IMG/VR virus record: IMGVR_UViG_648276649_000002
Strand: one strand, 5' to 3'
DNA length: 28,032 nt
From: a virus
Lineage: Duplodnaviria; Heunggongvirae; Uroviricota; Caudoviricetes
The notes beneath the pieces are model-generated. The model worked only from the letters and a program-made list of their open reading frames with translations. It searched no databases and was not told where the DNA came from. Positions 2,856-19,971 of this stretch are shown here, piece after piece (position 1 is the stretch's first letter; every line of letters begins with the position of its first letter). The position numbers were made by a program, and so were the translations under genes.

Positions 2856-3074
2856 TCAAAGAGAGAGCGCCCCCTGTCCTGATTTCATTGGATGCGGCTG
2901 AACCGGATTTGACTCTTTTGGCGTTGCAATCGAACGAACAAAAGTTTCATGGGTTACAAAAGTATGGCTGCAGTTAATATTCTGGCACTGGTTGTAACGC
3001 TCTTTGGTCAATGAAGATACCTGAAAACTGCTGCGAGTATGGGCGGCACTTCCACACAGTGGGCAAATCATCAT
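2856..3074 (-). CDS. ogr: Ogr/B-family zinc-finger late-gene activator
   Basis: 72-aa product from ATG at 3074 (MMICPLCGSAAHTRSS...CQNINC) with Cys4 pattern like P2 Ogr; GGGAGA 9 nt upstream. Confidence 0.8.
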   Translation of the reverse strand: MMICPLCGSAAHTRSSFQVSSLTKERYNQCQNINCSHTFVTHETFVRSIATPKESNPVQPHPMKSGQGALSL

Positions 3075-3164
3075 TTTTCGAGTTCTCCCCATTTTTGCTA
3101 AATTCACAATAATGATACCGCATTATTCCATTTTGCAAACTTAAAAGTTCTCCATTGCGAAGAA

Positions 3165-4265: not shown

Positions 4266-4747
4266 GACAGCAGCCCTCCCACCGTTTTACTGATATCGCT
4301 TAAGGCAGATGTTGCCATGTCCTGCAGATTATTCAGCTGCGCACTGAGATCACCAAACATATCGGACAGGGATTCATCCACCCGTTTGAGCGACAGGGTG
4401 AACTCAATCCGGCGCGGCATACCGTCGCGGAAAAACTCCGTTTTGGTCTGATTCAGTCCCTCAATCACATACATGCCGTAAATCGTGCCGCTGCCTTCAA
4501 TCAGGGGCCATGCTTTCCCCTGCTCTGCCATCTGCTCCAGTGCCAGCAATGACAGCCTGCCGCCTGTTATCTCCGGCATAAGAACACCAGAAAGCGTCAG
4601 CATGTCGTTGTCCGGTCCCAGAAACTGCGTGGATGGACGACGATTTACCCGACTGTTAGCCGCATGTCGCCAGCTGCGCTGATACTGCAGTTCCTGATAC
4701 GGCACGGTGCGCAGCATAAACACGTACAATCCCAGCACCATCATCAT
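4262..4747 (-). CDS. U: tail protein U
   Basis: 161-aa ORF between T and D, as in P2 FETUD. Confidence 0.8.
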   Translation of the reverse strand: MMMVLGLYVFMLRTVPYQELQYQRSWRHAANSRVNRRPSTQFLGPDNDMLTLSGVLMPEITGGRLSLLALEQMAEQGKAWPLIEGSGTIYGMYVIEGLNQTKTEFFRDGMPRRIEFTLSLKRVDESLSDMFGDLSAQLNNLQDMATSALSDISKTVGGLLS

Positions 4748-6300
4748 GCGTCGTATCCCCCCTGATCGCTGTAGTTACTCCTGGCTTTTGCCTTCAGCCT
4801 GCGTTCACGTTCATCAAGCTGGCGGGCCACCTCCCGCGCAATATCCTGCGCACTTTGTCCTGGCTGCGTCTGAATGATGATCTGCGTCGGTGCCTCAATC
4901 CGTTGAACGGGCGGCACAGTGGCTGCACGACTCACCATCGCTTCGCCGCCTTTCGCGGGAAGTGCCAAAGGATGTAACGGTGGAAGCTCTGTAGGCGCGG
5001 CAGCAACGCCCATCATTTCGGCAACAACCGCAGCCAGTGCAGCGGTATTTCTCCGGCTGGTCACGTTTGCCGGGCCGTTGACAATTTCCGGCCCGTTTTC
5101 ACCGACGATGCCAAACTGCCCGCGCGGGATATAGCCGCCGCTGTCATACATCCCCGCAAAGCCATATCCCCATGACGGAAAACCACCCGATGGCATCATC
5201 ACTTTACCGTCTGCATTCACCGTCGCAGGTTGCTGACGCGTCACGCTTTCCGGCAGTTTCGCCTTTGCGGCCTCTTTACTGACAATGCCGAGCTTCTCCA
5301 GCAACCAGGAAACGCCGGATTTCAGTGAGTCCAGCGGATGCATGACCATATTCAGCCCTTCCGCCAGTGCCTCCCCGAATCGCCGCCCCATTGCCGCTGC
5401 ACTCTGCAGTTCGGCAGAGGTCGACTTAACGGGCGTCAGCAGATCAGTAAACCAGCCCCACAGCGCCTGCACTTTGTCGCCAATCCACTGAAACACAGGC
5501 TTAAGTGGTTCGAATGCAGCACTGATGGGACCTGCCGCCGCTTTGAATCCTTCCACCACGCCACCGAGAAATGCGGTGATGGGTTGCCAGTATTTCCAGA
5601 CAACCAGCGCCACGCCCGCCAGTGCAGTAACCACAAGACCTATCGGACTGAGCAGAGCACCTAACAGACCAGATACGGCATACAGAGCAACGCGCAGCAT
5701 CGCCAGCGGACCGGATGCCAGCACTCGCAGCACCGCGCCTGCGGCGGTCAGTCCACCGCGCAGTACCGCCAGTGGATTCATAAACATCACAGCAACCGCA
5801 CGTAAACCGGATAATCCAGACCGCAATAGTGCAACCGGCGCACCTGCTACAGTTTTCAGGACATTTCCCGTCAGTGATGCCGTACGGCGCAAAGACGACA
5901 ACGGCGCAGTAAGTAAACCCGCTGCGTTACCCGATGAAGCAAGCCCGCGTCGCAGCACTGCCAGTGGAGCGCCAGCCAGCCAGGACAACGCGCTGCTGGT
6001 TCGTGTTACTGCTGCCGTAACGGAAGGTAACGTTTTGATGCCCAGCACAGAGAATCCCAGACGGATGACTGCCAGCGGCCCCAGCACTGCAGCCAGCGCC
6101 ACAGCCAGGGTGCCGAGTCCTACGGTAACCGCAGCCACAATAGCGGCTACTTTCATCAGTGTGCCCGTCAGTTCCGGGTTAGCTTCCACCCAGCGACGCA
6201 ACGCTCCCGTAACGCTTTTCACCGTGTACAGAATATCCATCAGCGGCATAACGTCAGTAACGGATGGCGGCCAGTGAAAAATGGTGGCGATATCAGCCAC
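4744..6300 (-). CDS. T: tail tape measure protein, shortened; no independent ATG, frame continuous with E'
   Basis: 518-aa Ala/Leu/Gly-rich ORF with hydrophobic repeats and a C-terminal MYDSGGYIPRGQFGIVGENGPEI-type segment; only about 1.56 kb lies between E and U. Confidence 0.7.
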   Translation of the reverse strand: MADIATIFHWPPSVTDVMPLMDILYTVKSVTGALRRWVEANPELTGTLMKVAAIVAAVTVGLGTLAVALAAVLGPLAVIRLGFSVLGIKTLPSVTAAVTRTSSALSWLAGAPLAVLRRGLASSGNAAGLLTAPLSSLRRTASLTGNVLKTVAGAPVALLRSGLSGLRAVAVMFMNPLAVLRGGLTAAGAVLRVLASGPLAMLRVALYAVSGLLGALLSPIGLVVTALAGVALVVWKYWQPITAFLGGVVEGFKAAAGPISAAFEPLKPVFQWIGDKVQALWGWFTDLLTPVKSTSAELQSAAAMGRRFGEALAEGLNMVMHPLDSLKSGVSWLLEKLGIVSKEAAKAKLPESVTRQQPATVNADGKVMMPSGGFPSWGYGFAGMYDSGGYIPRGQFGIVGENGPEIVNGPANVTSRRNTAALAAVVAEMMGVAAAPTELPPLHPLALPAKGGEAMVSRAATVPPVQRIEAPTQIIIQTQPGQSAQDIAREVARQLDERERRLKAKARSNYSDQGGYDA

Positions 6301-6314
6301 CAGATCGTCAACCG

Positions 6315-6617
6315 TCAGGCTGTCGGTAAACCGGCAAGCACCGACTTCTTCAACAAAAAAGTGACAACCTCAACCGACATGGCAGTGAGATCTGCCGGGT
6401 CCATCTCTGCAATTTCCTGTGCAGTCAGTGCCGGACTGGAGATGCGGGGGATCACGGTCATCATCGCGTTCACATCCATATCCATAATGGCCTGCAGGCG
6501 TGTACCGCGCAGCGCACCGGACTGCGGTTTACGCAGCACAATTTCGGTGATTTCTGTTTTACCTCGCTTGATGGGGGTATCCAGTTGAATAGTCTTTTCA
6601 GTCTGCTTATCGCTCAT
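6315..6617 (-). CDS. E: tail assembly chaperone E
   Basis: 100-aa ORF directly upstream of the tape measure; contains the slippery heptamer near its 3' end. Confidence 0.8.
   Translation of the reverse strand: MSDKQTEKTIQLDTPIKRGKTEITEIVLRKPQSGALRGTRLQAIMDMDVNAMMTVIPRISSPALTAQEIAEMDPADLTAMSVEVVTFLLKKSVLAGLPTA
6354..6360 (-). other. programmed -1 frameshift slippery heptamer T TTT TTG (E to E')
   Basis: on the - strand reads ACT TTT TTG in the E frame; the -1 frame is open from here into the T ORF. Confidence 0.7.
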
Positions 6618-6671
6618 TTTGCTGTCCTGTAAATTGGGTTCTGGCGCGGTATCCCGCGCCGTTCAGATACA

Positions 6672-7187
6672 TCAGAGGCCGAGGGCGTTGCGGTGCGCTT
6701 CCATCAGGTCCACACCGTCCACAATTTCCACCATGTTGATAAGGTCCACTTCATAGAGCACCTCACCATTTATAGTCAGCTTCGCGTAGCTGTTGGTACT
6801 GGTCACTTTGGTGGTGTTGCTTTCGCCCGTCTTCCACTCTCCGGAATCCACTTCTTTGTGACGTCCACGCACCACAAGCTCCACAGCCTGCACTTCCCCG
6901 GTATCGTCACGCTGGATAGAGCCGGTAAAGCGCAGCTGGATGCCATCCACCGTAGCTTTGCCCATCTGTTTAAACAGCAGCAGTTCAGTACCACCAATGG
7001 AAAATTCTGTGTCCAGCGCACTGTCATCAAGCCCCAGATCCACATCCACTGCACCCGGCATTCCGCCGCCGCGATACTTCTCATATTTGCGGGTGAATTT
7101 CGGCAGCGTCAGCGACTCAACGATCCCCTGCCAGTTGTTCCCGTCATTAAACAGGTTCAGGTGTTTTAATTTGCGTGGTAAAGCCAT
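6672..7187 (-). CDS. FII: tail tube protein FII
   Basis: 171-aa ORF, size and position of P2 gpFII. Confidence 0.85.
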   Translation of the reverse strand: MALPRKLKHLNLFNDGNNWQGIVESLTLPKFTRKYEKYRGGGMPGAVDVDLGLDDSALDTEFSIGGTELLLFKQMGKATVDGIQLRFTGSIQRDDTGEVQAVELVVRGRHKEVDSGEWKTGESNTTKVTSTNSYAKLTINGEVLYEVDLINMVEIVDGVDLMEAHRNALGL

Positions 7188-7196
7188 GTTGTCCCC

Positions 7197-8036
7197 TTAC
7201 GCGCTGACCTGGCTGGAGAAATTCACCAGGTACTGATCGGTGATGCGCTGACGCAGCATCAGGTTTTCAAGTGGCGGCACTGGCGTGTAGTCGTAATCGA
7301 TGGTGAGTTTTCCGGCTTTCAGGGTGTCTTTGTCGTTCACCGACTCGTCCAGCCAGCAATCACCACCAATGAGATACCCCTGACTTACCAGGCTGCGCAT
7401 TTTGGCGCGGATACCCTCGATAATGTCGCGCGCCAGCGACGGGTTCAGCGGTTTGTCCACCGCCCACATGTGCGCTTCTGCCATTGTGTCCGTCAGCACC
7501 TGCGCCGTGCGAGTGTAGTTTTCGAAAGCAAAAAGCGGATCATCGCTCAGACAGCGGGAACCCCAGAAGCGGAAACCATCCTTGCGCACAAGCGTGGTGA
7601 CGTCGTTCTGGTTAAGCAGTCCCGCATCGGTTGCCGGGTCCTGCAGATCCCAGAACACATCAGCAGAAATTCCGGTGACACCGTTCACGCCCACGTTGGA
7701 CAGGCTTTTGTGCCATCCGGTCTGCTCGTCAATTTTGGCGCGCAGACCAAGCGCTCGGGCGGTGGCATATGCCGTTGCTTCGGCATTCAGCACCGTGTCC
7801 CAGCCAGTAAAGTCAGGCCAGATCAGCATCCCTTCGCGCTGGCTAAAGTTTTCACGGTAAGTGATCGCCTCCTGTACCGTCTTGCAGCCATACGCTGACA
7901 GGTAAGCAAATCCACGCAGGCTTTGCGCCACGCTCAGCAACTCAGTAGCTACCGCCTTGGTGTCGTGGCCTGGCACGCCGAGAATGCGCGGTTTAACGCC
8001 GAGCTGTGACTGGGCAGATAATCCAGTTGGTTTCAA
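7197..8036 (-). pseudogene. FI: tail sheath protein FI, 5'-truncated; retains about the C-terminal 280 of about 396 aa
   Basis: strong match to P2-type sheath from [11 protein letters not shown] onward to [12 protein letters not shown]; no N-terminal third and no ATG (the track start is TTG). Confidence 0.8.
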
Positions 8037-8148
8037 GGTCGCCCGTTTTCACCCGGCAAAGCCAGTTATCCCGGTCCACCTCGGTGACTACACCAGTGCG
8101 GATCAGGTTGGTGATAAGGCGCATGATTTCAGTCAGTTGTGCATTCAT
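7993..8148 (-). pseudogene. V: baseplate spike protein V, N-terminal fragment of about 45 aa then out-of-frame tail
   Basis: ATG at 8148; [36 protein letters not shown] resembles gpV N-terminus; runs into the FI remnant. Confidence 0.65.
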
Positions 8149-8159
8149 GAGAGCGATCC

Positions 8160-8188
8160 TTGCACAACCGGGTAGAGTGATGTAATAC
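8160..8188 (+). promoter_or_regulatory. candidate sigma70 promoter for the antisense moron ORF
   Basis: TTGCAC, 17-nt spacer, TAATAC on the + strand about 55 nt upstream of ATG 8244. Confidence 0.35.
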
Positions 8189-8196
8189 AGAGCGTA

Positions 8197-8214
8197 TGTA
8201 TGGAGAACCACACA
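8197..8214. promoter_or_regulatory. TGT-N12-ACA dyad, candidate Ogr-dependent late promoter element (pV)
   Basis: TGTatggagaaccacACA, centred about 57 nt upstream of the V' start codon; shares gaACCACACAAA with the dyad upstream of P. Confidence 0.4.
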
Positions 8215-8243
8215 AAAGAGAAACAATTTCTAAGGTATTTAAG

Positions 8244-9110
8244 ATGACACAAATCGCAATTTATGGATTTAATTTCACTAAAAAAATCACATTTGACGGT
8301 GGTGAGTTAACTCCTATTTTCAGTTCATGGAGTGAGTTAAAAAAAAATGGCTGGGATAATGATAGGTACATCCTCACTGGTTTTTTCAAACCAAACTCGA
8401 ATAACTACGCCACTCAACAGCAGCTTATTTTTGATTTACAAGCAGTTCTTAGTTTTATTGAACAAAAAAATGTAATCATTTCAGGAGAACTTGAAAATGA
8501 TGAAACCCCTTTCAATTTCAAACCATCTCTACCCAAAAAGCTTGACAAAAAAAGAGATAAGGGTGCGGGCATTATCATCATGGAAGATTATTTTGCACCA
8601 AACAGCCGAGAAAATTTTATTTGCTTAGCCATGGAAAAACTAAATAGTAAAGCCATGCTAAAACAAGATGCCTTTAGAACATCATTTTTTAAATCAATGC
8701 TAGCTTTCCGCGACTCAATAAATTATATCGACGTCAGATATTATTTATTATTCTCGGCACTAGAAGCACTTTGCAGATTTATTAAAAATGACTACTCCCC
8801 TGCCAAAACACCACAAATAATCACTCAGGTTTTAAAAGAATATGGTTTTAATGTCGAAAAAACAGGACATACATTAGCTCAAAGAAACATTATGCATTAC
8901 TGCAAACTCCGTCACTCGCTGTTCCACAATGGTAAATACATTGCCTATCTTGATGAAAAAAACTCAGATGGCAAAATTGAAATTCAAGATTACTCATCAA
9001 ATTTGAATTTACTGGTGCCACTTGTACTAATGAAATTCATAGGATTTGATGACAATTATATAAACTGGGACTCATGGATTGATAGGAATCCATTTATCAG
9101 TAAAAAGTAA
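8244..9110 (+). CDS. hypothetical cargo protein, possible HEPN-like (Rx4H) abortive-infection candidate
   Basis: 288-aa ORF from ATG 8244 with AAGG upstream; strongly AT-rich, antisense to the late operon; C-terminal YCKLRHSLFHNGK motif. Confidence 0.7.
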   Translation: MTQIAIYGFNFTKKITFDGGELTPIFSSWSELKKNGWDNDRYILTGFFKPNSNNYATQQQLIFDLQAVLSFIEQKNVIISGELENDETPFNFKPSLPKKLDKKRDKGAGIIIMEDYFAPNSRENFICLAMEKLNSKAMLKQDAFRTSFFKSMLAFRDSINYIDVRYYLLFSALEALCRFIKNDYSPAKTPQIITQVLKEYGFNVEKTGHTLAQRNIMHYCKLRHSLFHNGKYIAYLDEKNSDGKIEIQDYSSNLNLLVPLVLMKFIGFDDNYINWDSWIDRNPFISKK

Positions 9111-9136
9111 ACTAAATTTTATAAATGTGGTTTTAT

Positions 9137-9583
9137 TTATCTCTGTAACCAATTTAGCAAAGCATCCTGAATGACAGTTTCCACATCATCATTTACGCCT
9201 AGGAGACGACGCTCTGCATAACGGACCTCCGGTCCTCTTCGACTGATGCGATCACGCAGGCCGTAGTGATGAACGCGGGCAATGCGCTGCACCTTACCTT
9301 CAAACTGCACGCTGGCAGAATCGGCGCTGGCGGCAGTTTTCAGGTATTTTGTGGTGCGCAGCTTTGTAAACATCTGACGTTTGATGCGCCCCTTTTTGCT
9401 GCGTGCTGTTACCCGTCGCGGCTCATAACTGCTGCCATCTGGATTGCGCTGCATCCTGATGTTCTGCTGCTGTGTCCGGCGCAGTTCCTGCGCCAGCTGG
9501 CGCATCATGCGGCTTCTTGCGGCTGGCTCCAGATTCGCCAGCAAGGCACTCAGCCAGTCGTCCACCTTCTGCAATTCAGCCAC
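9137..9583 (-). CDS. S: tail completion protein S
   Basis: 148-aa ORF in the gpS position downstream of R. Confidence 0.8.
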   Translation of the reverse strand: MAELQKVDDWLSALLANLEPAARSRMMRQLAQELRRTQQQNIRMQRNPDGSSYEPRRVTARSKKGRIKRQMFTKLRTTKYLKTAASADSASVQFEGKVQRIARVHHYGLRDRISRRGPEVRYAERRLLGVNDDVETVIQDALLNWLQR

Positions 9584-10007
9584 GTTTCACCGTCCACATT
9601 TCTTCAGGTTCATCAGGTTCCGCTATAGCTTCAACGCTCGACACACTGCCGTCAGTGCTGACCAGCACACGCTCCGTCAGTTGCAGGTTCAGGCTGATAT
9701 CACAGACATCGTTGCGCAGAATATCCACCTCAAAGGTGAATAGTTTTTCCCGTAACGCCGGGTTATTGATGGCATCGGGCTGGTTATCCCGCAGCCACAG
9801 CAAAACCGGGGCCATCAGCAGATTCTGGTCGCCGCTGAAATCCTCAATCACTGCGTTCAGCGTGTAACGGTACTCCCACGACATGGAGCTGGTCCCCGTG
9901 GCAACCAGCGAACCGTTATCCACAAACAGATGCAGTTTGTCCGGGTTATTGCGGACATAAGGCACTGCTTTATTAAGGGCGTGGCGCAGGGATTGTGGTT
10001 TGTTCAC
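9576..10007 (-). CDS. R: tail completion protein R
   Basis: likely GTG start at 10007 with AGGAG 8 nt upstream; gpR-like size and position. Confidence 0.75.
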   Translation of the reverse strand: MNKPQSLRHALNKAVPYVRNNPDKLHLFVDNGSLVATGTSSMSWEYRYTLNAVIEDFSGDQNLLMAPVLLWLRDNQPDAINNPALREKLFTFEVDILRNDVCDISLNLQLTERVLVSTDGSVSSVEAIAEPDEPEEMWTVKRG

Positions 10008-10260
10008 TGTTTCGCTCCTGACACGCAATAATCATGTCCACTTTGTCTGCACAGACCGCCCAGGCGGCCTCCGTTTCATCCAGCAACGCGTTCAGCTCAC
10101 CGTTAGTGCGCGGCGCTGTCTGATCCAGCCGACACGGCGTCACTCGCGGACAACCACTGACGGTAAGCTGCACCTCCGGTGAGTGCCGGACGTTCCCGCA
10201 GCCGGATAATGTCAGCAGGCAAAGGAGTATCAGCCCAGCGGCGTAAATCCTCATTCTCAC
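9973..10260 (-). CDS. lysC: o-spanin (Rz1-like outer-membrane lipoprotein LysC)
   Basis: starts inside lysB in another frame; signal peptide with lipobox LTLSGC; Pro-rich C-terminus. Confidence 0.7.
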   Translation of the reverse strand: MRMRIYAAGLILLCLLTLSGCGNVRHSPEVQLTVSGCPRVTPCRLDQTAPRTNGELNALLDETEAAWAVCADKVDMIIACQERNSEQTTIPAPRP

Positions 10261-10531
10261 GTTTCAGTTCCTCAATCCGGCGTTGTCGTTGTCTCAGCAG
10301 CGCGCTGGTCTGTTCTGCGTCGGCATAGAGCCGCGCCTGCTCCCGGTTATTGGTTTCAGTCAGAATGGACAGGCTGATAAGCTGGCTGTTGCTCTTTGCC
10401 AGTGCCTGGCTTTTGCTCTGCAGCTCGTCCGCCTGCGTGCTGATGGTCCGGCTGGCATCAGCCAGCCGCCACGTCTGCCAGCCCAGCGCCGCCAGTAATA
10501 ACGCCAGCATAACCAGCAGCAACCGGTTCAT
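10103..10531 (-). CDS. lysB: i-spanin (Rz-like LysB)
   Basis: N-terminal transmembrane helix followed by coiled-coil-like charged region; overlapped by lysC. Confidence 0.75.
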   Translation of the reverse strand: MNRLLLVMLALLLAALGWQTWRLADASRTISTQADELQSKSQALAKSNSQLISLSILTETNNREQARLYADAEQTSALLRQRQRRIEELKRENEDLRRWADTPLPADIIRLRERPALTGGAAYRQWLSASDAVSAGSDSAAH

Positions 10532-10905
10532 GCTGCTACCTGTTGCGCCATCTGATTACGGGTGATCCAGAAGGCAATAACGGTCAGTAGATAAAAGACC
10601 AGGGTAATAGCCCACCCCGTCCAGACGAGACTTACGACAATCAGCAATCGCATCACCCAGCTGATAAATACGTTTTCTTTTCGGGTAATGGTCTTCAGCA
10701 AAGATACCCTCAACTCCTGCCAGAGCGAGCCATTCTTAATTAACGCAGCCAGTGCTACCGGAATTGCCGCCCATGTCAGTAAACAGGCTACCCAAACGCC
10801 GGACGCTGCCAGTACCGAAAAAATCCCCTGCGGATACACCATTGCTGCGATTAACAGCGCCATCCATAACATCAGAAACAGTCCGCTGATTAATTTCTTT
10901 TTCAT
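10528..10905 (-). CDS. lysA: lysis regulatory membrane protein LysA
   Basis: ATG at 10905 with GGGAG upstream; multi-TM small protein after the endolysin. Confidence 0.7.
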   Translation of the reverse strand: MKKKLISGLFLMLWMALLIAAMVYPQGIFSVLAASGVWVACLLTWAAIPVALAALIKNGSLWQELRVSLLKTITRKENVFISWVMRLLIVVSLVWTGWAITLVFYLLTVIAFWITRNQMAQQVAA

Positions 10906-10906
10906 T

Positions 10907-11419
10907 TCAGTTTGCTCCCTGTAAGCACCAGGCCATCTCCCGCGCACGGCGGTTATCCAGCCCCTGATTAAACACACCTTTCACATACACCCAGCGCGGC
11001 AACTGTCGGCACGCATCCGCCCAGCGCCGCTGATTGAGCAATTTCACCAGCGTGGAGCTGCAGGCATTGCCTGTCCCCACGTTGAAGGCAAATGACACCA
11101 CCGCGTCATACACTTTCTGCGGTGGCTGTTGCTTCACACACCTTTCCAGTGACCGCTCCACACGCAGCACGTTGGAGATAAGCCCTTCTGCTGCCTGTCG
11201 TTCCGTAATGGTTTTGCCGGGAATGACGTCCGACGTATTACCAATGCCGTCAGTCCATACACCCGCGCTGCACTGATACGGCTGCAGACGACAGCCTTCG
11301 TAATCGGCAATCAGTTTCAGTCCTTCCACGGAGGTGTGAAGCTGCTGAAAACCCGGCAGCGTGGCAGCAATAGCCAGCACGGCCCCGACAAGGCAGCGTT
11401 TAACGATTGATGGATTCAT
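10907..11419 (-). CDS. K: endolysin, phage lysozyme with N-terminal signal-anchor-like segment
   Basis: 170-aa ORF with hydrophobic N-terminus and lysozyme-like EG...D...T region; P2 gpK position. Confidence 0.85.
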   Translation of the reverse strand: MNPSIVKRCLVGAVLAIAATLPGFQQLHTSVEGLKLIADYEGCRLQPYQCSAGVWTDGIGNTSDVIPGKTITERQAAEGLISNVLRVERSLERCVKQQPPQKVYDAVVSFAFNVGTGNACSSTLVKLLNQRRWADACRQLPRWVYVKGVFNQGLDNRRAREMAWCLQGAN

Positions 11420-11615
11420 AATCCTCCCGCGAGATCTGCCCGTCGCGCAGAAGCTGGTAGGCTTTGTGTTTGTAGTACCAGTTGATAGCCAGCATCAGTA
11501 CACCAATCATCAGGCCGCCCAGCGTTGAGGCATCCTTGATGGACAAATCACCCAGCCAGGCCAGCACGACGGCGATGCAATACGTGATAAAGGCGCTGAT
11601 TCGCTCAAGCGTCAT
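11400..11615 (-). CDS. Y: holin
   Basis: 71-aa protein with two hydrophobic helices and charged C-terminus, immediately upstream of the endolysin. Confidence 0.7.
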   Translation of the reverse strand: MTLERISAFITYCIAVVLAWLGDLSIKDASTLGGLMIGVLMLAINWYYKHKAYQLLRDGQISREDYESINR

Positions 11616-11618
11616 AAT

Positions 11619-11822
11619 TCAGTCCCATAGCTGGACGGTCTGCACGGTGGTGGTTGTCGGAATGTCCGGCAGCTCCACCTGCAGCCCGTGAGGTAAAAAG
11701 GGGCCGTATTCGGCAAGCCCCGGATTTGCCTTCAGTACCTGCTCCGTGACACCCTGCGTGCGCCCGTAATGACGCCAGCAAAGTGCGTCCACCGTGTCAT
11801 ACTGATGCGCACGCACTTTCAT
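11619..11822 (-). CDS. X: tail protein X
   Basis: 67-aa ORF in the gpX position between L and the holin. Confidence 0.7.
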   Translation of the reverse strand: MKVRAHQYDTVDALCWRHYGRTQGVTEQVLKANPGLAEYGPFLPHGLQVELPDIPTTTTVQTVQLWD

Positions 11823-12286
11823 CAGATAAGCTCCACTGTGCAGTGCGGCGCATCCTGCACCCGGCTGATGGCCCAGCGGGCGTCACGCCATAAATCACCG
11901 CTTGCTTCCGCCAGTTCCTCGCCTCGCTTCGCACCGGATGCCGTGGCGTCATAGTCCTGGTAACGTTCGTTGAGCATGGCGCGTGCCCAGCAGTAAACCG
12001 CGTTGAAATAGTGCTGAATGCGCTCGCTTTTGCCGTCCAGTTGTTCCGCCGGGACTTCTGCCAGCGAGGCATACCCCAGCATCTGCTGGCGTCTGCGAAA
12101 CTCATACAGCTCTGCGTTGACCTCCGAAATTGCCGACAGCGCAACCTGCTTTAAACGCGGCTGCGTCACCGTGCCGTCAGTGCGCATGACACTGCGAAAC
12201 TCCGACAGGTCCACATCAGGCCAGAACGGCGTATTTCTGATGATTTCCGCCTGTTCCGGTGCCTGTTCTGGCGCAACAAACTTCAT
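11822..12286 (-). CDS. L: capsid completion protein L
   Basis: ATG at 12286 with AGGAGA upstream; gpL position. Confidence 0.8.
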   Translation of the reverse strand: MKFVAPEQAPEQAEIIRNTPFWPDVDLSEFRSVMRTDGTVTQPRLKQVALSAISEVNAELYEFRRRQQMLGYASLAEVPAEQLDGKSERIQHYFNAVYCWARAMLNERYQDYDATASGAKRGEELAEASGDLWRDARWAISRVQDAPHCTVELI

Positions 12287-12381
12287 GCTGCTTTCTCCTG
12301 AAATAAAGGGCGGTGGACGGGGTTTTGATGTGGCAGTGCCTTTCGCCACCCCGTGCCGCCCGTGCGCGGGGGCACGTTCTG

Positions 12382-13032
12382 TCAGCGGCTGTCATTGCGC
12401 AGTCTGCGCTCCAGCTGCTGTTTGTCTTTTTTCACGCCACAGCGGGGATCGAGCTGTAACGCATGGTTGAGATGATTAAGGGCGGAAGCCGGATTGCTTT
12501 CACTCAGGACAGCGCCAATCGCTTTATGCAGACGCGCCCGTGACTGGTCCGGCATATCCAGACCGTCTGTCAGCTCCAGCGTCTGCAGCAACAGTTCGGC
12601 ATCAAAGCCGGTGGCGGCAAGCATTGCGCTCTGCGCTGCATCTGCCATTTCCTCTGCCAGCACGGTCTGCACGTTGCGGTTACCCAGCGGCATCACCCAG
12701 CCATGACGCAGGGCATGACGCCCGATCTCCAGCGCCCCGGCATAATCTCCGGCATCAATGCGCCACAGCATCACGTACATCAGCACGTCATCCTGTTGAG
12801 CGCCTCCGGCAGCCAGGACGCCCTCCGCCCAGGCGGCATATTTCGGCAGCAGCTCCACCTTGATTTCCGCTTTTTTCACCGTGGACTGAACGCCCTTGAG
12901 ACGGCGGCGGTCTTCCGCCAGTTGCAGCAGCATCAGGTCATAGCCCGACGCGTGGCGAACGCTGCCGCCCTCGCGGGCGGCCTGTTCAGCCTGAACGCGC
13001 AGGCGATGCTGCCGTGCGGGACTCAGGCTCAT
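12382..13032 (-). CDS. M: terminase small (endonuclease) subunit M
   Basis: 216-aa ORF between N and L as in P2. Confidence 0.8.
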   Translation of the reverse strand: MSLSPARQHRLRVQAEQAAREGGSVRHASGYDLMLLQLAEDRRRLKGVQSTVKKAEIKVELLPKYAAWAEGVLAAGGAQQDDVLMYVMLWRIDAGDYAGALEIGRHALRHGWVMPLGNRNVQTVLAEEMADAAQSAMLAATGFDAELLLQTLELTDGLDMPDQSRARLHKAIGAVLSESNPASALNHLNHALQLDPRCGVKKDKQQLERRLRNDSR

Positions 13033-13035
13033 GGG

Positions 13036-14094
13036 TTACGCTCCGGCTTCTGCTGCGGCGGCGCTGAAATCGCCAATCTGGATGTTTTCCACCAGCGCAG
13101 CGCAGCGGTAGTCCTCAACCACATAGGCTTCGTTAACAGATTCAAAGTTTTCAATCCGGTCACGTTTCGGGTTGTCGATAACTGAACGGCGGCGGGTGTC
13201 TTCCTGCCAGTAGATGGACAGGTTATCCAGACGGGTGATCAGCAGCGCATTCGGCGGGAAGAACGGCGCACGCACGGCCTGCAGACCGCCCATGCGTTTC
13301 TGACTGATAATCATATCGGCTGCCAGTTTTTCACTGTTTTCCTGCTCTTTGTTGACCAGCGGGAAATACTTGTCAGACAGCAGTTCACGACCGCAAATCA
13401 CCATCAGATCGTCATCATCCTGGTAGACCACGTCGATAAGCTCATTGACCGCATCCATCACTACAGCGTCCAGGTTGGCATATTCGCCACCTTTCCCGAC
13501 TTTCACCGCACCCGGTGTGGTTTCGCCGCCCGTGGTGGTGCTGCCCATGACGTGATCCGGTGCATCCTCACGGATTTTCTGCAGCCAGCCTTTGTTCACA
13601 TCCTGCAGCAGCGGGTTTTCACTACGGTTGGAGGTTTTCGCACGCTTCACGCCGTTAAAGCCGATCATGATGCGGTCCAGTGCCTGACGTTTCACGATGG
13701 CGTCACGGATACGCACCTGGAAATCCTGAAACTTCGCCCACAGGTCCAGCTTCGCGTAGGTCAGCACCGTGTCAAAGTTGGTCTGCTCGCATTTATATTC
13801 CACATCGACCATCAGCGTCGGATCGACAGGTTCACGCTCTTTCGCGGTGGTGTCAGTGGTTCCGGCAATGGTGCTGCCAACACCCAGCCCCAGCAACTGA
13901 CCGGACTGCTCAGTCACTGGCGTGACGTTAATCAGCGTCAGGAAGGCGGCGGACTGCTGGATCTGGTCTTCCAGCGTCTGCTGCACAGACGGCTCCACAG
14001 TGAATTTGCTGGACAGTTCTTCAACTGCCACACCGTTCAGACGCGCCAGCTGCTGCAGGTAAGCGTTAAAAGCAAAGCGGGTATTCTTCTTCAT
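13036..14094 (-). CDS. N: major capsid protein N
   Basis: 352-aa ORF, P2 gpN size and position. Confidence 0.9.
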   Translation of the reverse strand: MKKNTRFAFNAYLQQLARLNGVAVEELSSKFTVEPSVQQTLEDQIQQSAAFLTLINVTPVTEQSGQLLGLGVGSTIAGTTDTTAKEREPVDPTLMVDVEYKCEQTNFDTVLTYAKLDLWAKFQDFQVRIRDAIVKRQALDRIMIGFNGVKRAKTSNRSENPLLQDVNKGWLQKIREDAPDHVMGSTTTGGETTPGAVKVGKGGEYANLDAVVMDAVNELIDVVYQDDDDLMVICGRELLSDKYFPLVNKEQENSEKLAADMIISQKRMGGLQAVRAPFFPPNALLITRLDNLSIYWQEDTRRRSVIDNPKRDRIENFESVNEAYVVEDYRCAALVENIQIGDFSAAAAEAGA

Positions 14095-14110
14095 CGGGTT
14101 TTGTGCTCCA

Positions 14111-14944
14111 TCAGCAATTGGTCAGAGTGTCAGCGGGGGCGTTACCGCCTGTTGCACGCTGGCGGTAGTCCTGGCGGCTGTCTTCATGACTCAGCTTGTC
14201 CACCAGTTCGTTAAAGGCGGTCTGCTGTGCCTGCAGGGCAGTCTCCAGCTCAGACAGGCGTTCTTCCTGCTCAGACAGGGATTTTTCGGTGCGTGCGCTC
14301 AGGTTCTGCTGCTCAGTGGCGACCAGCTCCACGGCCTTATGCACATCAGAGAACCGGGCGTCATCGGACTGCTCTTTTTTGGTAAACAGCGCCGTGACGC
14401 GGGCAAACAGGGACGGTTTGTCGTCCTGGACTTCTTCCAGTTCGATCACCGTTTCCTCTGCAGCGGTAAAAAGATTGGCGGGATTCTGCTTGCGGTTTGC
14501 CAGCGGGTTATGGGCTGCACTGGCGCTGAATGTCAGCATTTCCGTACCCAGACTGGCGGGATCATCAGTGGCAGCCAGGCCGACCAGATAGGCTTTGCCC
14601 GTATCAGCGAACTTCGGGCTGACTTCCATAGAGGTGAATAATTTCTGGCCTTTTTTCACCAGTTCCACCAGGGACTCCGTTGGCTCAACGTCGGCATACA
14701 GCGCCATCTTGCCTGCCAGCGGACCTTCCGTGATTTCTTCAGCAAACAGCGCCGTCACCTTGCCGTAGCGGTTAAAGGTGCTGTCCGGCAGATAAGACTT
14801 GATGTGCTCAAGGTTAATCAGCGCGGTATACACCGCCGGGTTGTAGCTGGCTGCCATCTGTTCCAGCCATTCACGCTGGATTTCGCGTCCGTCGGTGGTG
14901 GCACCTTCCACCCCGATGCGAAAACGCTTTGCTTTCACTGTCAT
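14111..14944 (-). CDS. O: capsid scaffolding protein O
   Basis: 277-aa ORF with acidic coiled-coil C-terminal half; divergent from P. Confidence 0.85.
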   Translation of the reverse strand: MTVKAKRFRIGVEGATTDGREIQREWLEQMAASYNPAVYTALINLEHIKSYLPDSTFNRYGKVTALFAEEITEGPLAGKMALYADVEPTESLVELVKKGQKLFTSMEVSPKFADTGKAYLVGLAATDDPASLGTEMLTFSASAAHNPLANRKQNPANLFTAAEETVIELEEVQDDKPSLFARVTALFTKKEQSDDARFSDVHKAVELVATEQQNLSARTEKSLSEQEERLSELETALQAQQTAFNELVDKLSHEDSRQDYRQRATGGNAPADTLTNC

Positions 14945-15022
14945 GAGCCGTGCTCCGTTAGAAAAAACTTACTGGAGCCTTATGGTTGCGGAGATAGGGG
15001 CAGTGAAACAATGCGCGGTATT

Positions 15023-15040
15023 TGTACCGACAACCACACA
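15023..15040. promoter_or_regulatory. TGT-N12-ACA dyad, candidate Ogr-dependent late promoter element in the O/P divergent region
   Basis: TGTaccgacaaccacACA centred about 56 nt upstream of the P start codon. Confidence 0.4.
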
Positions 15041-15086
15041 AACCGCAGGCGGGGAAAGCCTTCATTCAAGGCTGTAGGTTTGTGCC

Positions 15087-16853
15087 ATGAACACCACACT
15101 GACACCCGCAGATCTCGATCCCCGTCGGCAGGCCATGCTGCTGTACTTTCAGGGATACCGCGTCGCCCGCATTGCTGAAATGCTGGGCGAGAAAGTTGCA
15201 ACCGTTCACAGCTGGAAAAAACGCGACAAGTGGGGTGACTATGGGCCGCTGGATCAGATGCAGCTCACCACCGCCGCACGCTACTGCCAGCTCATTATGA
15301 AGGAGCACAAAGAAGGGAAAGATTTCAAAGAGATTGACCTGCTGGCGCGCCAGTCGGAGCGCCACGCGCGGATCGGCAAGTTTAACAATGGCGGCAACGA
15401 AGCCGACTTAAACCCTAACGTCGCCAACCGCAACAAAGGCCCACGCCGTCAGCCGGAAAAGAATGTTTTCACCGATGAGCAGATTGAGAAGCTGGAAGAA
15501 ATCTTCCATTCCTCCATGTTCAACTACCAGCGCCACTGGTGGGAAGCCGGAAAAACCAACCGCATCCGCAACCTGCTGAAGTCACGCCAGATCGGCGCGA
15601 CCTTTTACTTTGCCCGTGAAGCCCTGATTGACGCTCTGCTTACCGGACGTAACCAGATTTTCCTTTCTGCCAGTAAGGCACAGGCCCACGTCTTCAAACA
15701 GTACATCATCGACTTTGCCAAAGAAGTGGAGGTGGAGCTGAAAGGCGATCCGATGGTGCTTCCCAACGGGGCCACACTGTATTTCCTCGGAACCAATGCC
15801 CGCACGGCCCAGAGTTACCACGGCAACCTGTATCTGGATGAATATTTCTGGATACCGAAATTCCAGGAGCTGCGCAAAGTGGCTTCCGGTATGGCTATTC
15901 ACAAAAAATGGCGACAAACCTATTTTTCCACGCCATCCAGCCTGACCCACAGTGCTTATCCGTTCTGGTCCGGTGCGCTGTTCAACCGTGGACGCAACAA
16001 AGCTGACAAGGTGGACATCGACCTGTCCCACAGCAATCTGGCCCCCGGCCTGCTGTGCGCAGACGGGCAATACCGCCAGATAGTCACCGTGGAAGATGCG
16101 GTGCGCGGCGGCTGTAACCTGTTCGACCTCGACCAGCTACGCATGGAGTACAGCCCGGACGAATACCAGAACCTGCTGATGTGCGAGTTCGTGGACGATC
16201 TCGCGTCCGTGTTCCCGCTCAGCGAACTGCAGGCGTGCATGGTGGACAGTTGGGAAGTCTGGACCGACTTTCATGCACTGGCCCTGCGCCCGTTTGGCTG
16301 GCGCGAGGTGTGGATCGGTTATGACCCGGCAAAAGGTACGCAGAACGGCGACAGCGCCGGATGCGTGGTGGTGGCACCGCCAGCCGTGCCAGGCGGTAAG
16401 TTTCGCATTCTTGAGCGTCACCAGTGGCGCGGGATGGACTTCCGCGCCCAGGCGGACGCCATCAAAAAACTGACCGAACAGTACAACGTGACCTATATCG
16501 GCATCGACTCGACAGGTGTCGGTCACGGGGTTTACGAGAACGTGAAAGCGTTTTTTCCAGCCGTCCGGGAGTTTGTCTACAACCCCAACGTTAAAAACGC
16601 CCTGGTACTCAAGGCCTACGACATTATCAGCCACCGCCGTCTGGAGTTTGACGCCGGACACACCGACATAGCGCAGTCATTTATGGCAATCCGTCGCGCC
16701 ACCACCGCCAGCGGCAACCGCCCGACCTATGAAGCCAGCCGCAGCGAAGAAGCCAGCCACGCCGATCTGGCCTGGGCAACGATGCACGCTCTGTTTAACG
16801 AACCGCTGCAGGGCGAATCCGCCAATACCAGCAATATTGTGGAGATTTTTTGA
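15087..16853 (+). CDS. P: terminase large (ATPase) subunit P
   Basis: 588-aa ORF; N-terminus MNTTLTPADLDPRRQAMLLY is gpP-like. Confidence 0.9.
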   Translation: MNTTLTPADLDPRRQAMLLYFQGYRVARIAEMLGEKVATVHSWKKRDKWGDYGPLDQMQLTTAARYCQLIMKEHKEGKDFKEIDLLARQSERHARIGKFNNGGNEADLNPNVANRNKGPRRQPEKNVFTDEQIEKLEEIFHSSMFNYQRHWWEAGKTNRIRNLLKSRQIGATFYFAREALIDALLTGRNQIFLSASKAQAHVFKQYIIDFAKEVEVELKGDPMVLPNGATLYFLGTNARTAQSYHGNLYLDEYFWIPKFQELRKVASGMAIHKKWRQTYFSTPSSLTHSAYPFWSGALFNRGRNKADKVDIDLSHSNLAPGLLCADGQYRQIVTVEDAVRGGCNLFDLDQLRMEYSPDEYQNLLMCEFVDDLASVFPLSELQACMVDSWEVWTDFHALALRPFGWREVWIGYDPAKGTQNGDSAGCVVVAPPAVPGGKFRILERHQWRGMDFRAQADAIKKLTEQYNVTYIGIDSTGVGHGVYENVKAFFPAVREFVYNPNVKNALVLKAYDIISHRRLEFDAGHTDIAQSFMAIRRATTASGNRPTYEASRSEEASHADLAWATMHALFNEPLQGESANTSNIVEIF

Positions 16854-17875
16854 TGAAAGAACATATCGCGCCAGACGAAACCGTAACTGCAGAAGAAACT
16901 AAAAAATCCGTTGCGGAGGCTTTCAGCTTTGGTGATCCCATTCCTGTACTGGACCGCCGCGAACTGCTGGACTATGTGGAATGCGTACAGATGGATCGCT
17001 GGTATGAGCCGCCCGTCAGCTTTGACGGACTGGCGCGCACCTTCCGCGCCGCCGTGCACCACAGCTCCCCGATCAGTGTTAAGCGTGACATTATCAGCAG
17101 TACCTATATTCCACATCGCCTTCTCAGCCAGCAGGCATTTACCCGTTTTGTGCAGGACTATCTGGTTTTTGGTAACGCCTACCTGGAGAAACGCACGAAC
17201 CGCTTTGGTGAAGTTATTTCGCTGGAACCTGCACTGGCAAAATACACCCGGCGCGGACTTGACCTTGAAACATACTGGTTTGTGCAATACAGCCTGACGA
17301 CACAGCCGTATCAGTTCACAAAAGGTAATGTCTTCCACCTGATGGAGCCGGATATCAACCAGGAGATTTATGGTCTGCCGGGTTACCTTTCTGCCATTCC
17401 GTCAGCTCTGCTCAACGAATCCGCCACGCTGTTCCGCCGCAAGTATTACATCAACGGCAGTCATGCAGGCTTCATCATGTACATGACCGACGCCGCGCAG
17501 AACCAGGAGGATGTAAACAACCTCCGTAACGCGATGAAAAGCGCCAAAGGTCCAGGCAACTTCCGTAATCTGTTTATGTACTCGCCTAACGGCAAAAAAG
17601 ACGGGCTTCAGATTATCCCGTTATCAGAAGTCGCAGCGAAGGATGAGTTTCTGAATATCAAGAACGTGAGCCGGGACGACATGATGGCAGCACACCGAGT
17701 GCCGCCGCAAATGATGGGGATTATGCCGAATAATGTTGGTGGATTTGGGGATGTGGAGAAAGCGAGTAAAGTTTTTGTGAGAAATGAACTGATCCCGCTG
17801 CAGAAGAGATTATTCGAGATAAATGTATGGCTAGGAGAAAATGTCATTACTTTCCAGCCATACAACTTAGATTAA
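16850..17875 (+). CDS. Q: portal protein Q
   Basis: 341-aa ORF overlapping the P stop; gpQ position and size. Confidence 0.85.
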   Translation: MMKEHIAPDETVTAEETKKSVAEAFSFGDPIPVLDRRELLDYVECVQMDRWYEPPVSFDGLARTFRAAVHHSSPISVKRDIISSTYIPHRLLSQQAFTRFVQDYLVFGNAYLEKRTNRFGEVISLEPALAKYTRRGLDLETYWFVQYSLTTQPYQFTKGNVFHLMEPDINQEIYGLPGYLSAIPSALLNESATLFRRKYYINGSHAGFIMYMTDAAQNQEDVNNLRNAMKSAKGPGNFRNLFMYSPNGKKDGLQIIPLSEVAAKDEFLNIKNVSRDDMMAAHRVPPQMMGIMPNNVGGFGDVEKASKVFVRNELIPLQKRLFEINVWLGENVITFQPYNLD

Positions 17876-17880
17876 TACTA

Positions 17881-17910
17881 TTACAGACACTTTCGTGAAA
17901 GTGTCTGTAA
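17881..17910. other. perfect 13-bp stem-loop between convergent Q and the toxSAS-like gene
   Basis: ttacagacacttt cgtg aaagtgtctgtaa; no clear U-tract on either strand. Confidence 0.35.
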
Positions 17911-17923
17911 TCAAAAAATGAAA

Positions 17924-18928
17924 TTATTCTTCTGAATCATCATAAACATCCATTCCTTCGGTCTGATTTCTAATATAAGAAGCCCCCATAGAATTAGCAA
18001 TCGCAGTCCGAATTAACCCTACATGAGTGAAAAACACCCCTAACCTAGCACGCTTTAACTCAGACTCATCATCATAGTCATCTTCATTACTTATAATTCT
18101 TCTAACCATTGCCTTATCTTCGTCAATAGCCGAAGGTAGCCCACTCTTTAAAGCGTCAATACACTCACCTACAGTTATAATTTTATTTTTAATTAATTCA
18201 GAAAGCAAATCATCATAATTTTCATCATCAGATTTATTATCAGGTGGTAATTCACTTGCAGCTATCATTTTCAGCAATTCTACGTCAAGCATAGTTCCTC
18301 TATCTAGTCTGCTTGTCTCAACATACCCCTCACGCTCTGATAACACTCTTTCAAATTCGAAATCAACGACTTCAAGCAAAGCAGATACTCTATTAATTGC
18401 TCGCCTAAGAGGAAGTGGAACACTTTGCTCTTTTTTGTATTGCAGTTTATGAGATGCTGCAGCCCAAATATGCTGAGAAAGCGTTCGTATTTGCACCTCC
18501 ACTTTCATATTTTTAAAATCACTAAAGGATGGAACTCTTAGCCATTCTTCTGGAGGTTGTATTACATAATGATGAGATTGGTACCCAAATCTATCCTCAT
18601 CCAGTTCATCAAGTTTATTCTCTTGCTTCAAAATAATGAAATGTTCTTTCAGACAAGATATAACCTTTTCAACATCTCGCTTAAATAGCATTATTAATCG
18701 GATTCCAACATAATCATCCAAGTCAACTATTGACTCAATCTTTAGAGGTTTTCGGTTATCCTTATTAATAATAGAACTTAATGTTTTGACACGGCTTTCA
18801 ATTGGAACCCCTAAAGACAATTTATTCTCCGACAAAATAACATCAATTTGCTCAACCATAACTCGTCTGAACAATTCCGCAACTGAGCCGTAAATTGAAT
18901 GCTGTTCTTTTAATTCTTCGTCTGTCAT
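17924..18928 (-). CDS. RelA/SpoT-like nucleotidyltransferase (toxSAS-like) with uncharacterised acidic C-terminal domain
   Basis: motifs RVKTLSSIINK, DYVGIRLIM, GYQSHH and EVQIRTLSQHIWAAASHKLQYK in the N-terminal half; AT-rich; RBS-like AGGT upstream. Confidence 0.8.
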   Translation of the reverse strand: MTDEELKEQHSIYGSVAELFRRVMVEQIDVILSENKLSLGVPIESRVKTLSSIINKDNRKPLKIESIVDLDDYVGIRLIMLFKRDVEKVISCLKEHFIILKQENKLDELDEDRFGYQSHHYVIQPPEEWLRVPSFSDFKNMKVEVQIRTLSQHIWAAASHKLQYKKEQSVPLPLRRAINRVSALLEVVDFEFERVLSEREGYVETSRLDRGTMLDVELLKMIAASELPPDNKSDDENYDDLLSELIKNKIITVGECIDALKSGLPSAIDEDKAMVRRIISNEDDYDDESELKRARLGVFFTHVGLIRTAIANSMGASYIRNQTEGMDVYDDSEE

Positions 18929-19044
18929 CTATCTTACCTAACTTATATAAATGAATCAGATATAAAACATTGCATAATTTTAATTCAAGTGGACAACATA
19001 TAAATTATCCGATCTAAACCACTTAAACAACAGGTTTTGCGCGC

Positions 19045-19065
19045 GCTCGTATCCCCGCCACGCCT
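19045..19065. other. candidate cos (cohesive end) site
   Basis: - strand reads GGCGTGGCGGGGAtacgagcg; first 13 nt match my recollection of the 186/P2 cohesive end. Confidence 0.45.
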
Positions 19066-19779: not shown

Positions 19780-19971
19780 GTGTAAGCATCCATCAGGAAA
19801 ATGGTTTTGTAAGTGAATCATCAACTTTTAGAGAGTCTCAGACACTCCCACTTCTGCTTCTGACACAAAGCGGACGATCACTTATCAAAATAACCGCCCA
19901 CCTTACGCCTTATTTCACTCATTGCCCAAACTAGCCCCCATCAGAATGAATCCTCCTGGGGGCAACATTTC

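Follow-up and report, generated by a model that had tools for sequence, protein, structure and literature searches.

Candidate Ogr-type activator sites at two late-operon heads of a P2-family prophage that has lost tail genes

Late genes, activator gene and deletion

The window, which is the whole stretch of 28,032 nucleotides that was analysed, holds the following genes and junction, identified from Pfam matches and from synteny with annotated relatives.

2856..3092, minus strand: ogr homologue encoding a small zinc-finger protein (Pfam Ogr_Delta PF04606, 6.8e-22, profile positions 2-47 of 47)
7993..8148, minus strand: V' remnant, the first 134 nt of the baseplate gene V running into out-of-frame 'FI, a 51-codon ORF
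8015..8021: V'/'FI deletion junction, 7 nt overlap
8244-9110, plus strand: AT-rich accessory gene, divergent from V'
14111..14944, minus strand: O, capsid scaffold, first gene of the O operon (Pfam Phage_GPO, 2.2e-113)
15087..16853, plus strand: P, terminase large subunit (Pfam Terminase_5 from residue 11, Terminase_6N and 6C downstream)

The ogr homologue is intact, with a CX2CX22CX4C motif, and lies in synteny with the gene annotated as Ogr-like in Klebsiella phage 4LV2017. The N-terminus of P aligns with those of P2 and 186 P to within a few residues of residue 1, and its start at 15087 is also the PGAP start in the intact relative L003. Blastn comparison with the intact relatives L001 and L003, together with the list of ORFs, defined the V' remnant. 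Window positions 6240-8021 correspond to 3883-5664 of L003 and positions 8015-17787 to 12001-21779, so that about 6.3 kb are absent: V has lost its 3' part and FI its first 348 nt, and W, J, I, H, the fibre-assembly/invertase cassette and the FI promoter dyad are gone. Window positions 8149-9179, which span the accessory gene, have no match in L001 and are present in L003.

A third dyad is present in intact relatives, 84.5-85.5 nt upstream of FI and followed by a GGAG-containing leader; this dyad is kept in 48 distinct upstream sequences of at least three visibly different types. In L003 it begins at locus position 6106, with a CATAGG block 38-43 nt beyond it that is similar to the block found on the O side (below). 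As this dyad falls inside the missing 6.3 kb, the original prediction that the FI-operon promoter was lost with the deletion is borne out. With the FI promoter deleted and V' fused to 'FI, the V promoter would now read into the remaining tail genes, and any residual transcription from it would enter 'FI-FII-E-T'-U-D.

Position and conservation of the two dyads

Two TGT-N12-ACA dyads lie at late-operon heads, one upstream of V and one in the O-P spacer, and three candidate core promoter elements were placed beside them.

8156..8164, minus strand: predicted V-promoter -10 region TGCAAGGAT, in which AAGGAT (8161-8156) ends 7 nt before the ATG
8197..8214: predicted Ogr-type activator dyad of the V promoter, TGTatggagaaccacACA, which reads TGTGTGGTTCTCCATACA in the V' direction
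14979..14984, minus strand: predicted O-promoter -10-like block CATAAG, 39-44 nt beyond the dyad on the O side, inside a conserved CGCAA(A/C)CATA(A/G)GG
15023..15040: predicted Ogr-type activator dyad of the O-P divergent spacer, TGTaccgacaaccacACA / TGTACCGACAACCACACA
15075..15080, plus strand: predicted P-promoter -10 hexamer TAGGTT, ending 6 nt before the A of the P ATG

Both 18-mers are present where they had been reported, and both are exact copies of the family's inverted repeat (extended form TTGT-N10-ACAA). They had been described as lying about 56-57 nt upstream of the two start codons; measured from the dyad centre to the first base (A) of the ATG, the distance is 57.5 nt for V' (centre 8205.5, ATG at 8148 on the minus strand, 'cat' 8146-8148) and 55.5 nt for P (centre 15031.5, ATG at 15087 on the plus strand), so the two genes, on opposite strands, differ by 2 nt. 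The shared block noted earlier is an exact 11-mer, AACCACACAAA, preceded in both by GA and one mismatch, and when the 22-mers starting at each TGT are compared by eye, 18 of the first 21 positions are identical. The two copies of AACCACACAAA lie on the same DNA strand and hence in opposite orientation relative to P and V' transcription; their orientation agrees with the directions of V' and O. The most apt description is a quasi-palindrome of which the block forms the stronger half-site, TTTGTGTGG.

Upstream of V, relatives of the window have 25 distinct sequences in 12 unrelated families, and each contains one dyad, 54.5-57.5 nt from the V ATG; by eye, 11 of the 12 families lack a Shine-Dalgarno sequence. 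Accessory-gene cassettes inserted between S and V each carry a V promoter with its dyad at the right distance. In the O-P spacer, about 40 distinct sequences from many genera contain a single dyad, always 55.5 nt from the P ATG; its N12 spacer varies, and the distance to O ranges from 81.5 to 110.5 nt (87.5 nt in the window). On the P side a TAnnnT hexamer stands at the identical position, 35-40 nt beyond the dyad, in all aligned relatives (TATGTT, TAGGCT, TAATCT, TATTTT, TAGTCT) and would place the transcription start 55.5 nt from the dyad centre. On the O side CATA(A/G)GG is kept at a nearly fixed distance from the dyad and the length of the leader to the O ATG varies. The retention of TGT, ACA and their position among unrelated flanks and N12 spacers supports selection on the element. 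In the window itself, a defective prophage, selection on the V promoter copy may be gone.

Alternative readings of the dyads

The bare pattern is not enriched in the window, with nine TGT-N12-ACA matches against 7.64 +/- 2.79 expected, a number reached in 37 of 100 shuffles, and the pattern alone therefore proves nothing. If chance were the explanation, two copies of a motif with only six specified bases, which can turn up anywhere, would lie near gene starts by accident. The other seven matches are intragenic and have low matrix scores, and by our own estimate it is in itself nothing unusual for an exact 11-mer to occur twice in 28 kb. Against chance, when the window was scored with a 26-nt weight matrix drawn from 35 non-redundant sites in relatives, leaving out any with four or fewer mismatches to the window's own, the O-P dyad (22.9) and the V dyad (19.5) came first and second. 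Among 1000 first-order Markov simulations, 12 had one site scoring at least 19.5 and none had two. The positions are kept in the 12 V-upstream families and the 40 or so O-P spacers, and match the annotated sites of P2 and 186. As far as sequence evidence goes, these matrix ranks, simulations and conserved positions refute the chance explanation, to which we give almost no weight. Just as little goes to the idea that the dyads are bound not by Ogr but by a host regulator whose motif contains TGT...ACA, such as CRP. CRP half-sites do contain TGT and ACA, but the CRP consensus, TGTGA-N6-TCACA, separates them by 10 nt and not 12. The N12 spacing is kept in the sites of all relatives, which occur once per late operon in a family with a known activator.

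Two further alternatives concern which promoter each dyad serves. The dyad at 8197-8214 could be an operator or promoter element of the divergent accessory gene rather than of V': its centre is just 38.5 nt from the accessory ATG, a weak TTGCAC-17-TAATAC match seen by eye would set a transcription start on the dyad, at about 8195, and the gene and promoter region move as one cassette (8149-9179). We think this unlikely, since the same dyad-to-V distance occurs in the most frequent spacer family, which matches 4LV2017 over the 100 nt before V (in that phage S and V are 68 nt apart with no gene between them), and is also kept where the upstream sequences are quite different. Rightward transcription starting 55 nt from the dyad centre would begin within the accessory ORF, and P2 has the same divergent layout (orf30) with the site annotated as the pV activator site. 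A secondary role of the dyad, such as occlusion of the accessory-gene promoter by bound Ogr, may nevertheless exist. Similarly, the dyad at 15023-15040 might serve only P or only O, the other promoter using a different element, as the orientation of the stronger half-site TTTGTGTGG, alike relative to O and V', could suggest. We think this unlikely too, as it is the sole dyad in the O-P spacer across the clade, a -10-like block stands at a fixed distance on both sides, and the P2 and 186 records each give one shared site. A second dyad in this region (15081-15098) scores 17.1, a value reached in 5.5% of simulated sequences, and is missing from many relatives.

A model for late transcription in the window

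The reading we favour, with a probability of about 0.9 on the sequence evidence, is that the two dyads are DNA sites for the own Ogr-type zinc-finger activator of a P2-family (Peduoviridae) prophage. The original prediction of Ogr-activated P2-like late promoter elements is supported by position, the activator gene and conservation, and agreed with every sequence-level test that was run. It named the O-P dyad as the P element; this stands for the P promoter but not for P alone, because one annotated site in P2 and 186 serves both divergent promoters, and 15023-15040 is accordingly predicted to be common to P (rightward) and O (leftward). The shared O-P site, the half-site orientation and the leaderless spacing described below amend the Ogr late-promoter reading and leave it standing. 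This kind of element is long known, and here it lies in a prophage that has lost tail genes.

Conserved inverted repeats centred at about -55 are bound by Ogr, which requires contact with the RNA polymerase alpha subunit (PMC3152322), and the consensus of the four P2 late promoters is TGT-N12-ACA (PMC3931495). All promoter geometry proposed for the window is carried over from P2 and 186. On the model of P2, 186 and P4, Ogr would bind the inverted repeat TTGT-N10-ACAA about 55 bp upstream of a weak sigma-70 promoter having a -10 and no -35, and would recruit RNA polymerase through the alpha subunit. A consensus scan found no sigma-70-type promoter with a -35 element in the O-P spacer (14850-15200), nor in the V' direction near 8150-8214, as for activator-dependent late promoters. 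The O-P site would sit midway between two divergent starts and serve both: a rightward transcript of P then Q, predicted to start at the A of the P ATG (15087), and the leftward O operon, predicted to start near 14973-14977. The site at 8197-8214 would drive the leftward V promoter, with a predicted start 0-2 nt from the V' ATG at 8148. The predicted V -10 (AAGGAT or TGCAAG) is weak, and AAGGA could equally be a Shine-Dalgarno sequence, 8 nt before the ATG, if transcription starts further upstream.

As the rule of about -55 counts from the transcription start and the dyads are 55.5-57.5 nt from the start codons, the V' and P mRNAs are predicted to be essentially leaderless, which would account for the near-equal distance of the dyads from two start codons. 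Leaderless V has been reported for P2, and PMC4633059 lists P2 among the few known E. coli leaderless genes, citing Christie and Calendar 1985; leaderless P is predicted from conserved geometry. We lean slightly towards the view that in the widespread enterobacterial Elveevirus-like Peduoviridae clade (hosts Escherichia, Klebsiella, Citrobacter, Enterobacter, Pantoea, Erwinia and others) P is leaderless, as V is in P2, and that the single Ogr dyad at 55.5 nt also fires the leadered O operon. If so, two of the four late transcripts would begin directly with AUG, a conserved and abundant family of natural leaderless mRNAs would be added in E. coli and its relatives, and late-gene translation might be tuned through leaderless initiation.

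The main use of these observations is for annotation, in that the late-gene control sites of a common prophage family are marked, and the correct P start can be picked by a simple rule, since the dyads stand at a fixed 55.5-57.5 nt from the P and V start codons. The P start in the RefSeq record of 4LV2017 is 16 codons too late. The window prophage keeps its regulator and two of three activator sites though its tail genes are gone.

Comparison with P2, 186 and other known systems

The two dyads occupy the places of activator sites in the P2 and 186 RefSeq records (the O-P spacer and, in P2, just upstream of V), in agreement with their proposed alignment with known late promoter elements. P2 has one activator site for pO and pP (3057-3087; starts 3127 and 3016, each about 55 nt from the centre), a pV site (10239-10266) whose transcript starts at 10308, the V start codon itself, and a pF site (17555-17583; start 17626-17628). 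P_P/P_O, P_V and P_F thus hold the same genome positions as the O-P and V dyads of the window and the FI-side site of its intact relatives; P_F is deleted in the window. P2 also shares the inverted TGT...ACA about 55 nt from the start, the single O/P site, the lack of a -35 and the location of ogr after D. By eye, the window TAGGTT aligns with P2 TAGCCT, 6 nt upstream of the annotated P-operon start at 3016, and TGCAAGGAT resembles the TTGTGCAAT of P2 pV at the same place. By RefSeq coordinates the P2 sites are TGT-N12-CCA (pO/pP, pF) and TGT-N11-ACA (pV) and those of 186 read TGT-N12-CCA, whereas the window dyads are perfect; the perfect N12 dyad is therefore a family consensus and not a strict rule. 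In P2 the P gene is preceded by a 23-nt leader and its ATG stands 79.5 nt from the dyad centre, and the 186 homologue is likewise leadered (78.5 nt), in contrast to the 55.5 nt and predicted absence of a leader in the window clade.

As in the window, the activator of 186, the B protein, is a C4 zinc-finger homologue. The 186 record gives one B site (3798-3817) for 'activation of pV and p12 promoters', which are divergent, and a pJ site with initiation at 14159; the distance from the dyad to the scaffold gene is 87.5 nt, as in the window. No promoter is annotated in that record upstream of the V homologue (orf32), yet TTGTGTGAACCACC is present there. Across P2 and 186, annotated starts lie 54.5-58.5 nt from the site centres. 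One activator site for two divergent promoters was thus already annotated in these phages, and what the relatives compared here add is that the geometry to either side of the site is conserved.

Klebsiella phage 4LV2017 (Elveevirus) and the E. coli BS15R-A prophage are 95-100% identical in DNA to the window over the late genes and have the identical O-P dyad. Unlike the window, both are intact and retain V-W-J-I-H-G, the FI promoter dyad and a tape measure of full length. The V-promoter region and accessory gene of BS15R-A are identical to those of the window, whereas in 4LV2017 the V-promoter dyad is a different one, TGTATCAGCACTGATACA, and no accessory gene separates S from V. Among leaderless mRNAs of E. 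coli mobile elements, lambda cI, P2 V and Tn1721 tetR likewise start at the AUG and have no Shine-Dalgarno sequence, as predicted here for P of this clade from promoter geometry rather than from a mapped 5' end.

Prophage identity and gene layout

The ORF layout, Pfam matches and DNA matches identify the window as a P2-family (Peduoviridae) prophage. Klebsiella phage 4LV2017 is 95-97% identical to it at the DNA level, and a prophage of Escherichia coli BS15R-A is about 98-100% identical over the aligned late-gene blocks. On the minus strand the genes run, from right to left, O, N, M, L, X, lysis genes, R, S, V', 'FI, FII, E, T', U, D and ogr, where V' and T' are truncated forms of V and of the tape measure gene and 'FI is FI without its 5' part; P, followed by Q, lies on the plus strand. 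The features discussed here are as follows.

2856-3092, minus strand: ogr, matching Pfam Ogr_Delta over the whole profile (6.8e-22), with the zinc-finger motif CX2CX22CX4C
7197-8021, minus strand: 'FI
7993-8148, minus strand: V' remnant
8197-8214: dyad on the V side
8244-9110, plus strand: AT-rich accessory ORF, 288 aa, in the S-V gap and divergent from V'
9137-9583, minus strand: S
14111-14944, minus strand: O, Pfam Phage_GPO (2.2e-113)
15023-15040: dyad in the O-P spacer
15087-16853, plus strand: P
17924-18928, minus strand: ORF of 334 aa with a RelA_SpoT nucleotidyltransferase domain (Pfam 7.6e-20; PADLOC PDC-S33 1.8e-16)

On sequence grounds the P start at 15087 is genuine: Pfam Terminase_5 is matched from residue 11 onwards, and the alignment with the P proteins of P2 and 186 stops only a few residues short of residue 1. 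PGAP annotation in E. coli uses the equivalent upstream ATG. The RefSeq record of 4LV2017 begins P at a downstream ATG (17874 in its locus, equivalent to window 15135), 16 codons late, which cuts off the first six residues matched by Terminase_5.

Two predicted Ogr-type activator sites

Both dyads, inverted repeats of the form TGT-N12-ACA, are predicted to be Ogr-type activator sites, a well-known kind of element. The original prediction had read them as Ogr late promoter elements, and their position and conservation among relatives bear this out. The 18-mer at 8197-8214 is the predicted activator site of the V promoter. That at 15023-15040 had been assigned to P; it is a P promoter site, but not for P alone, and is better described as a single predicted activator site common to the divergent P and O promoters. 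Both 18-mers were located exactly at these coordinates, and the near-equal spacing first proposed (about 56-57 nt) agrees with the distances measured from dyad centre to the A of the ATG, 57.5 nt for V' (start codon at 8148, minus strand) and 55.5 nt for P. An exact 11-mer, AACCACACAAA, is common to the two dyads; this shared block is the stronger half-site, TTTGTGTGG, which reads in the same direction for V' and O and is inverted for P.

The bare pattern is not enriched, with nine occurrences in the window against 7.64 +/- 2.79 expected, which is chance level, and the case therefore rests on position and conservation. A 26-nt weight matrix was built from 35 non-redundant relatives' sites, leaving out any with four or fewer mismatches from the window's own sites, and had the consensus TTGTGT...CACAA. 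It gave its two highest scores in the window to 15023-15040 (22.9) and 8197-8214 (19.5); among 1000 first-order Markov simulations, a score of 19.5 was met once in 12 and twice in none. In consensus scans, neither the O-P spacer nor the V' direction yielded a sigma-70 promoter that includes a -35 element, which is what activator dependence would predict.

A third TGT-N12-ACA on the plus strand, 15081-15098 (TGTGCCATGAACACCACA), overlaps the P start codon and scores 17.1. Two roles were considered for it, that of a further Ogr site and that of an autoregulatory one. Both were rejected, because many relatives have no counterpart of the dyad and 5.5% of simulations reach its score. Relatives without it have TTGGGCC for TTGTGCC, or ACG for ACC, and the dyad occurs in a subset only; it is probably incidental. 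The matrix match at 3346-3363, inside D, was also discarded, its score of 13.7 lying inside the range of simulated maxima.

Conservation of the O-P site

Eighty P/O loci from one-genome-per-species bacterial assemblies were compared, the window's clade being defined by P N-termini at least 81% identical. The clade contributed about 40 distinct O-P spacers, from Escherichia, Citrobacter, Klebsiella, Enterobacter, Pantoea, Erwinia, Buttiauxella, Budvicia and others, and each of these contains a single dyad exactly 55.5 nt from the P ATG. The distance to the O ATG varies (81.5-110.5 nt) and the N12 spacer is freely variable; on the O side, a CGCAA(A/C)CATA(A/G)GG block lies at a near-constant distance from the dyad and the leader is of variable length. 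A TAnnnT hexamer 6 nt before the P ATG (TAGGTT in the window, 15075-15080) is kept in all aligned relatives, and aligns by eye with TAGCCT, 6 nt before the annotated P-operon transcript start in P2. In P2-like and 186-like prophages, in contrast, the dyad lies 77.5-79.5 nt from the P ATG, because of a 23-nt leader. A simple pattern search for TGT-N12-[AC]CA found none in the O-P spacers of more distant prophages (Rahnella, Pectobacterium, Yersinia and others; P N-termini 47-54% identical).

Conservation of the V site

The 100 nt upstream of V were compared in 79 IMG/VR loci with V identity of at least 94%. They comprise 25 distinct sequences in 12 families whose representatives are pairwise no more than 62% identical; the S-V gap is a hotspot for insertions, and the families are mutually unrelated for that reason. 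In all 25, TGT-N12-ACA occurs exactly once, with its centre 54.5-57.5 nt from the V ATG. Inspected by eye, most families show a -10-like hexamer whose end is 6-8 nt from the ATG, and 11 of the 12 lack a Shine-Dalgarno sequence in the last 20 nt. Each family has a dyad and a -10-like hexamer of its own, which means that a correctly spaced V promoter has come with, or evolved in, every inserted cassette. The window's V site falls in one of the 12 families, and its promoter region is identical in the BS15R-A prophage.

Deletions and the FI promoter

FI too is preceded by a TGT-N12-ACA, at a distance of 84.5-85.5 nt, in 80 IMG/VR loci with 48 distinct upstream sequences; a CATAGG block and a GGAG-containing leader follow it, and BS15R-A and 4LV2017 have the same arrangement. 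Positions 5665-12000 of the BS15R-A locus, about 6.3 kb, are missing from the window. They take in the 3' part of V and continue through W, J, I, H and the fibre-assembly/invertase cassette to the FI promoter and the first 348 nt of FI. The missing stretch includes the FI promoter, so the earlier statement that this promoter was lost with the deletion is right. V' and 'FI meet at 8015-8021 with a 7-nt overlap, a junction absent from all 5,426 complete E. coli genomes searched. The V promoter would now read through V'-'FI into FII-E-T'-U-D.

Compared with the BS15R-A prophage, 99.8-100% identical to it, the window has lost a second stretch, of about 1.6 kb (2258-3882 of the BS15R-A locus), with the junction at 6240-6247 and an 8-nt overlap. 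The resulting ORF (4744-6300, minus strand) is an in-frame fusion of the initial ~18 codons of the frameshift product E' with the ~500 C-terminal residues of T. With both deletions the prophage lacks baseplate and fibres, the N-terminus of the sheath and half of its tape measure; it still has head, terminase, lysis, replication and regulatory genes.

Accessory genes

The 288-aa accessory ORF occupies the position of orf30 in P2, but the protein has no similarity to the orf30 product and was rejected as its homologue; it matched no Pfam or PADLOC family. An identical gene occurs in several E. coli prophages. The 334-aa RelA_SpoT ORF comes immediately after Q, at the tin/old accessory hotspot of P2, and may be a small-alarmone-synthetase-type toxin or defence gene.

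Comparison with P2 and 186

TGT-N12-ACA is common to the four P2 late promoters (PMC3931495). The inverted repeats to which Ogr binds have their centre at about -55, and Ogr requires the alpha subunit of RNA polymerase (PMC3152322). By RefSeq coordinates the P2 and 186 sites are imperfect, with TGT-N12-CCA at pO/pP and pF and TGT-N11-ACA at P2 pV. The P2 record has a single 'activator binding site; pO, pP promoters' at 3057-3087, whose centre is ~55 nt from the starts of both the O operon (3127) and the P operon (3016), and a pF site at 17555-17583 (start 17626-17628). Phage 186 likewise has a single B-protein site, 3798-3817, for 'activation of pV and p12 promoters', the homologues of the P2 O and P promoters, and a pJ site with initiation at 14159. 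In its record the V homologue, orf32, has no annotated promoter upstream (9660-9728 of our 186 locus); the spacer there contains TTGTGTGAACCACCACC, which resembles half of a B site.

At the P2 pV site (10239-10266) the V-operon start, 10308, is the V start codon itself. Leaderless genes in E. coli are known from few sources, P2 among them (PMC4633059, citing Christie and Calendar 1985). The -55 rule combined with leaderless mRNAs would explain why the window's dyads lie at the same distance from both start codons. The literature searched yielded no description of P as a leaderless gene in P2-like phages. The original prediction is amended in three respects: one site common to O and P, the leaderless geometry, and the direction of the block that both dyads share. 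A leaderless mRNA is documented for P2 V, and for P of the window's clade a conserved one is predicted, the sole point here that is possibly new.
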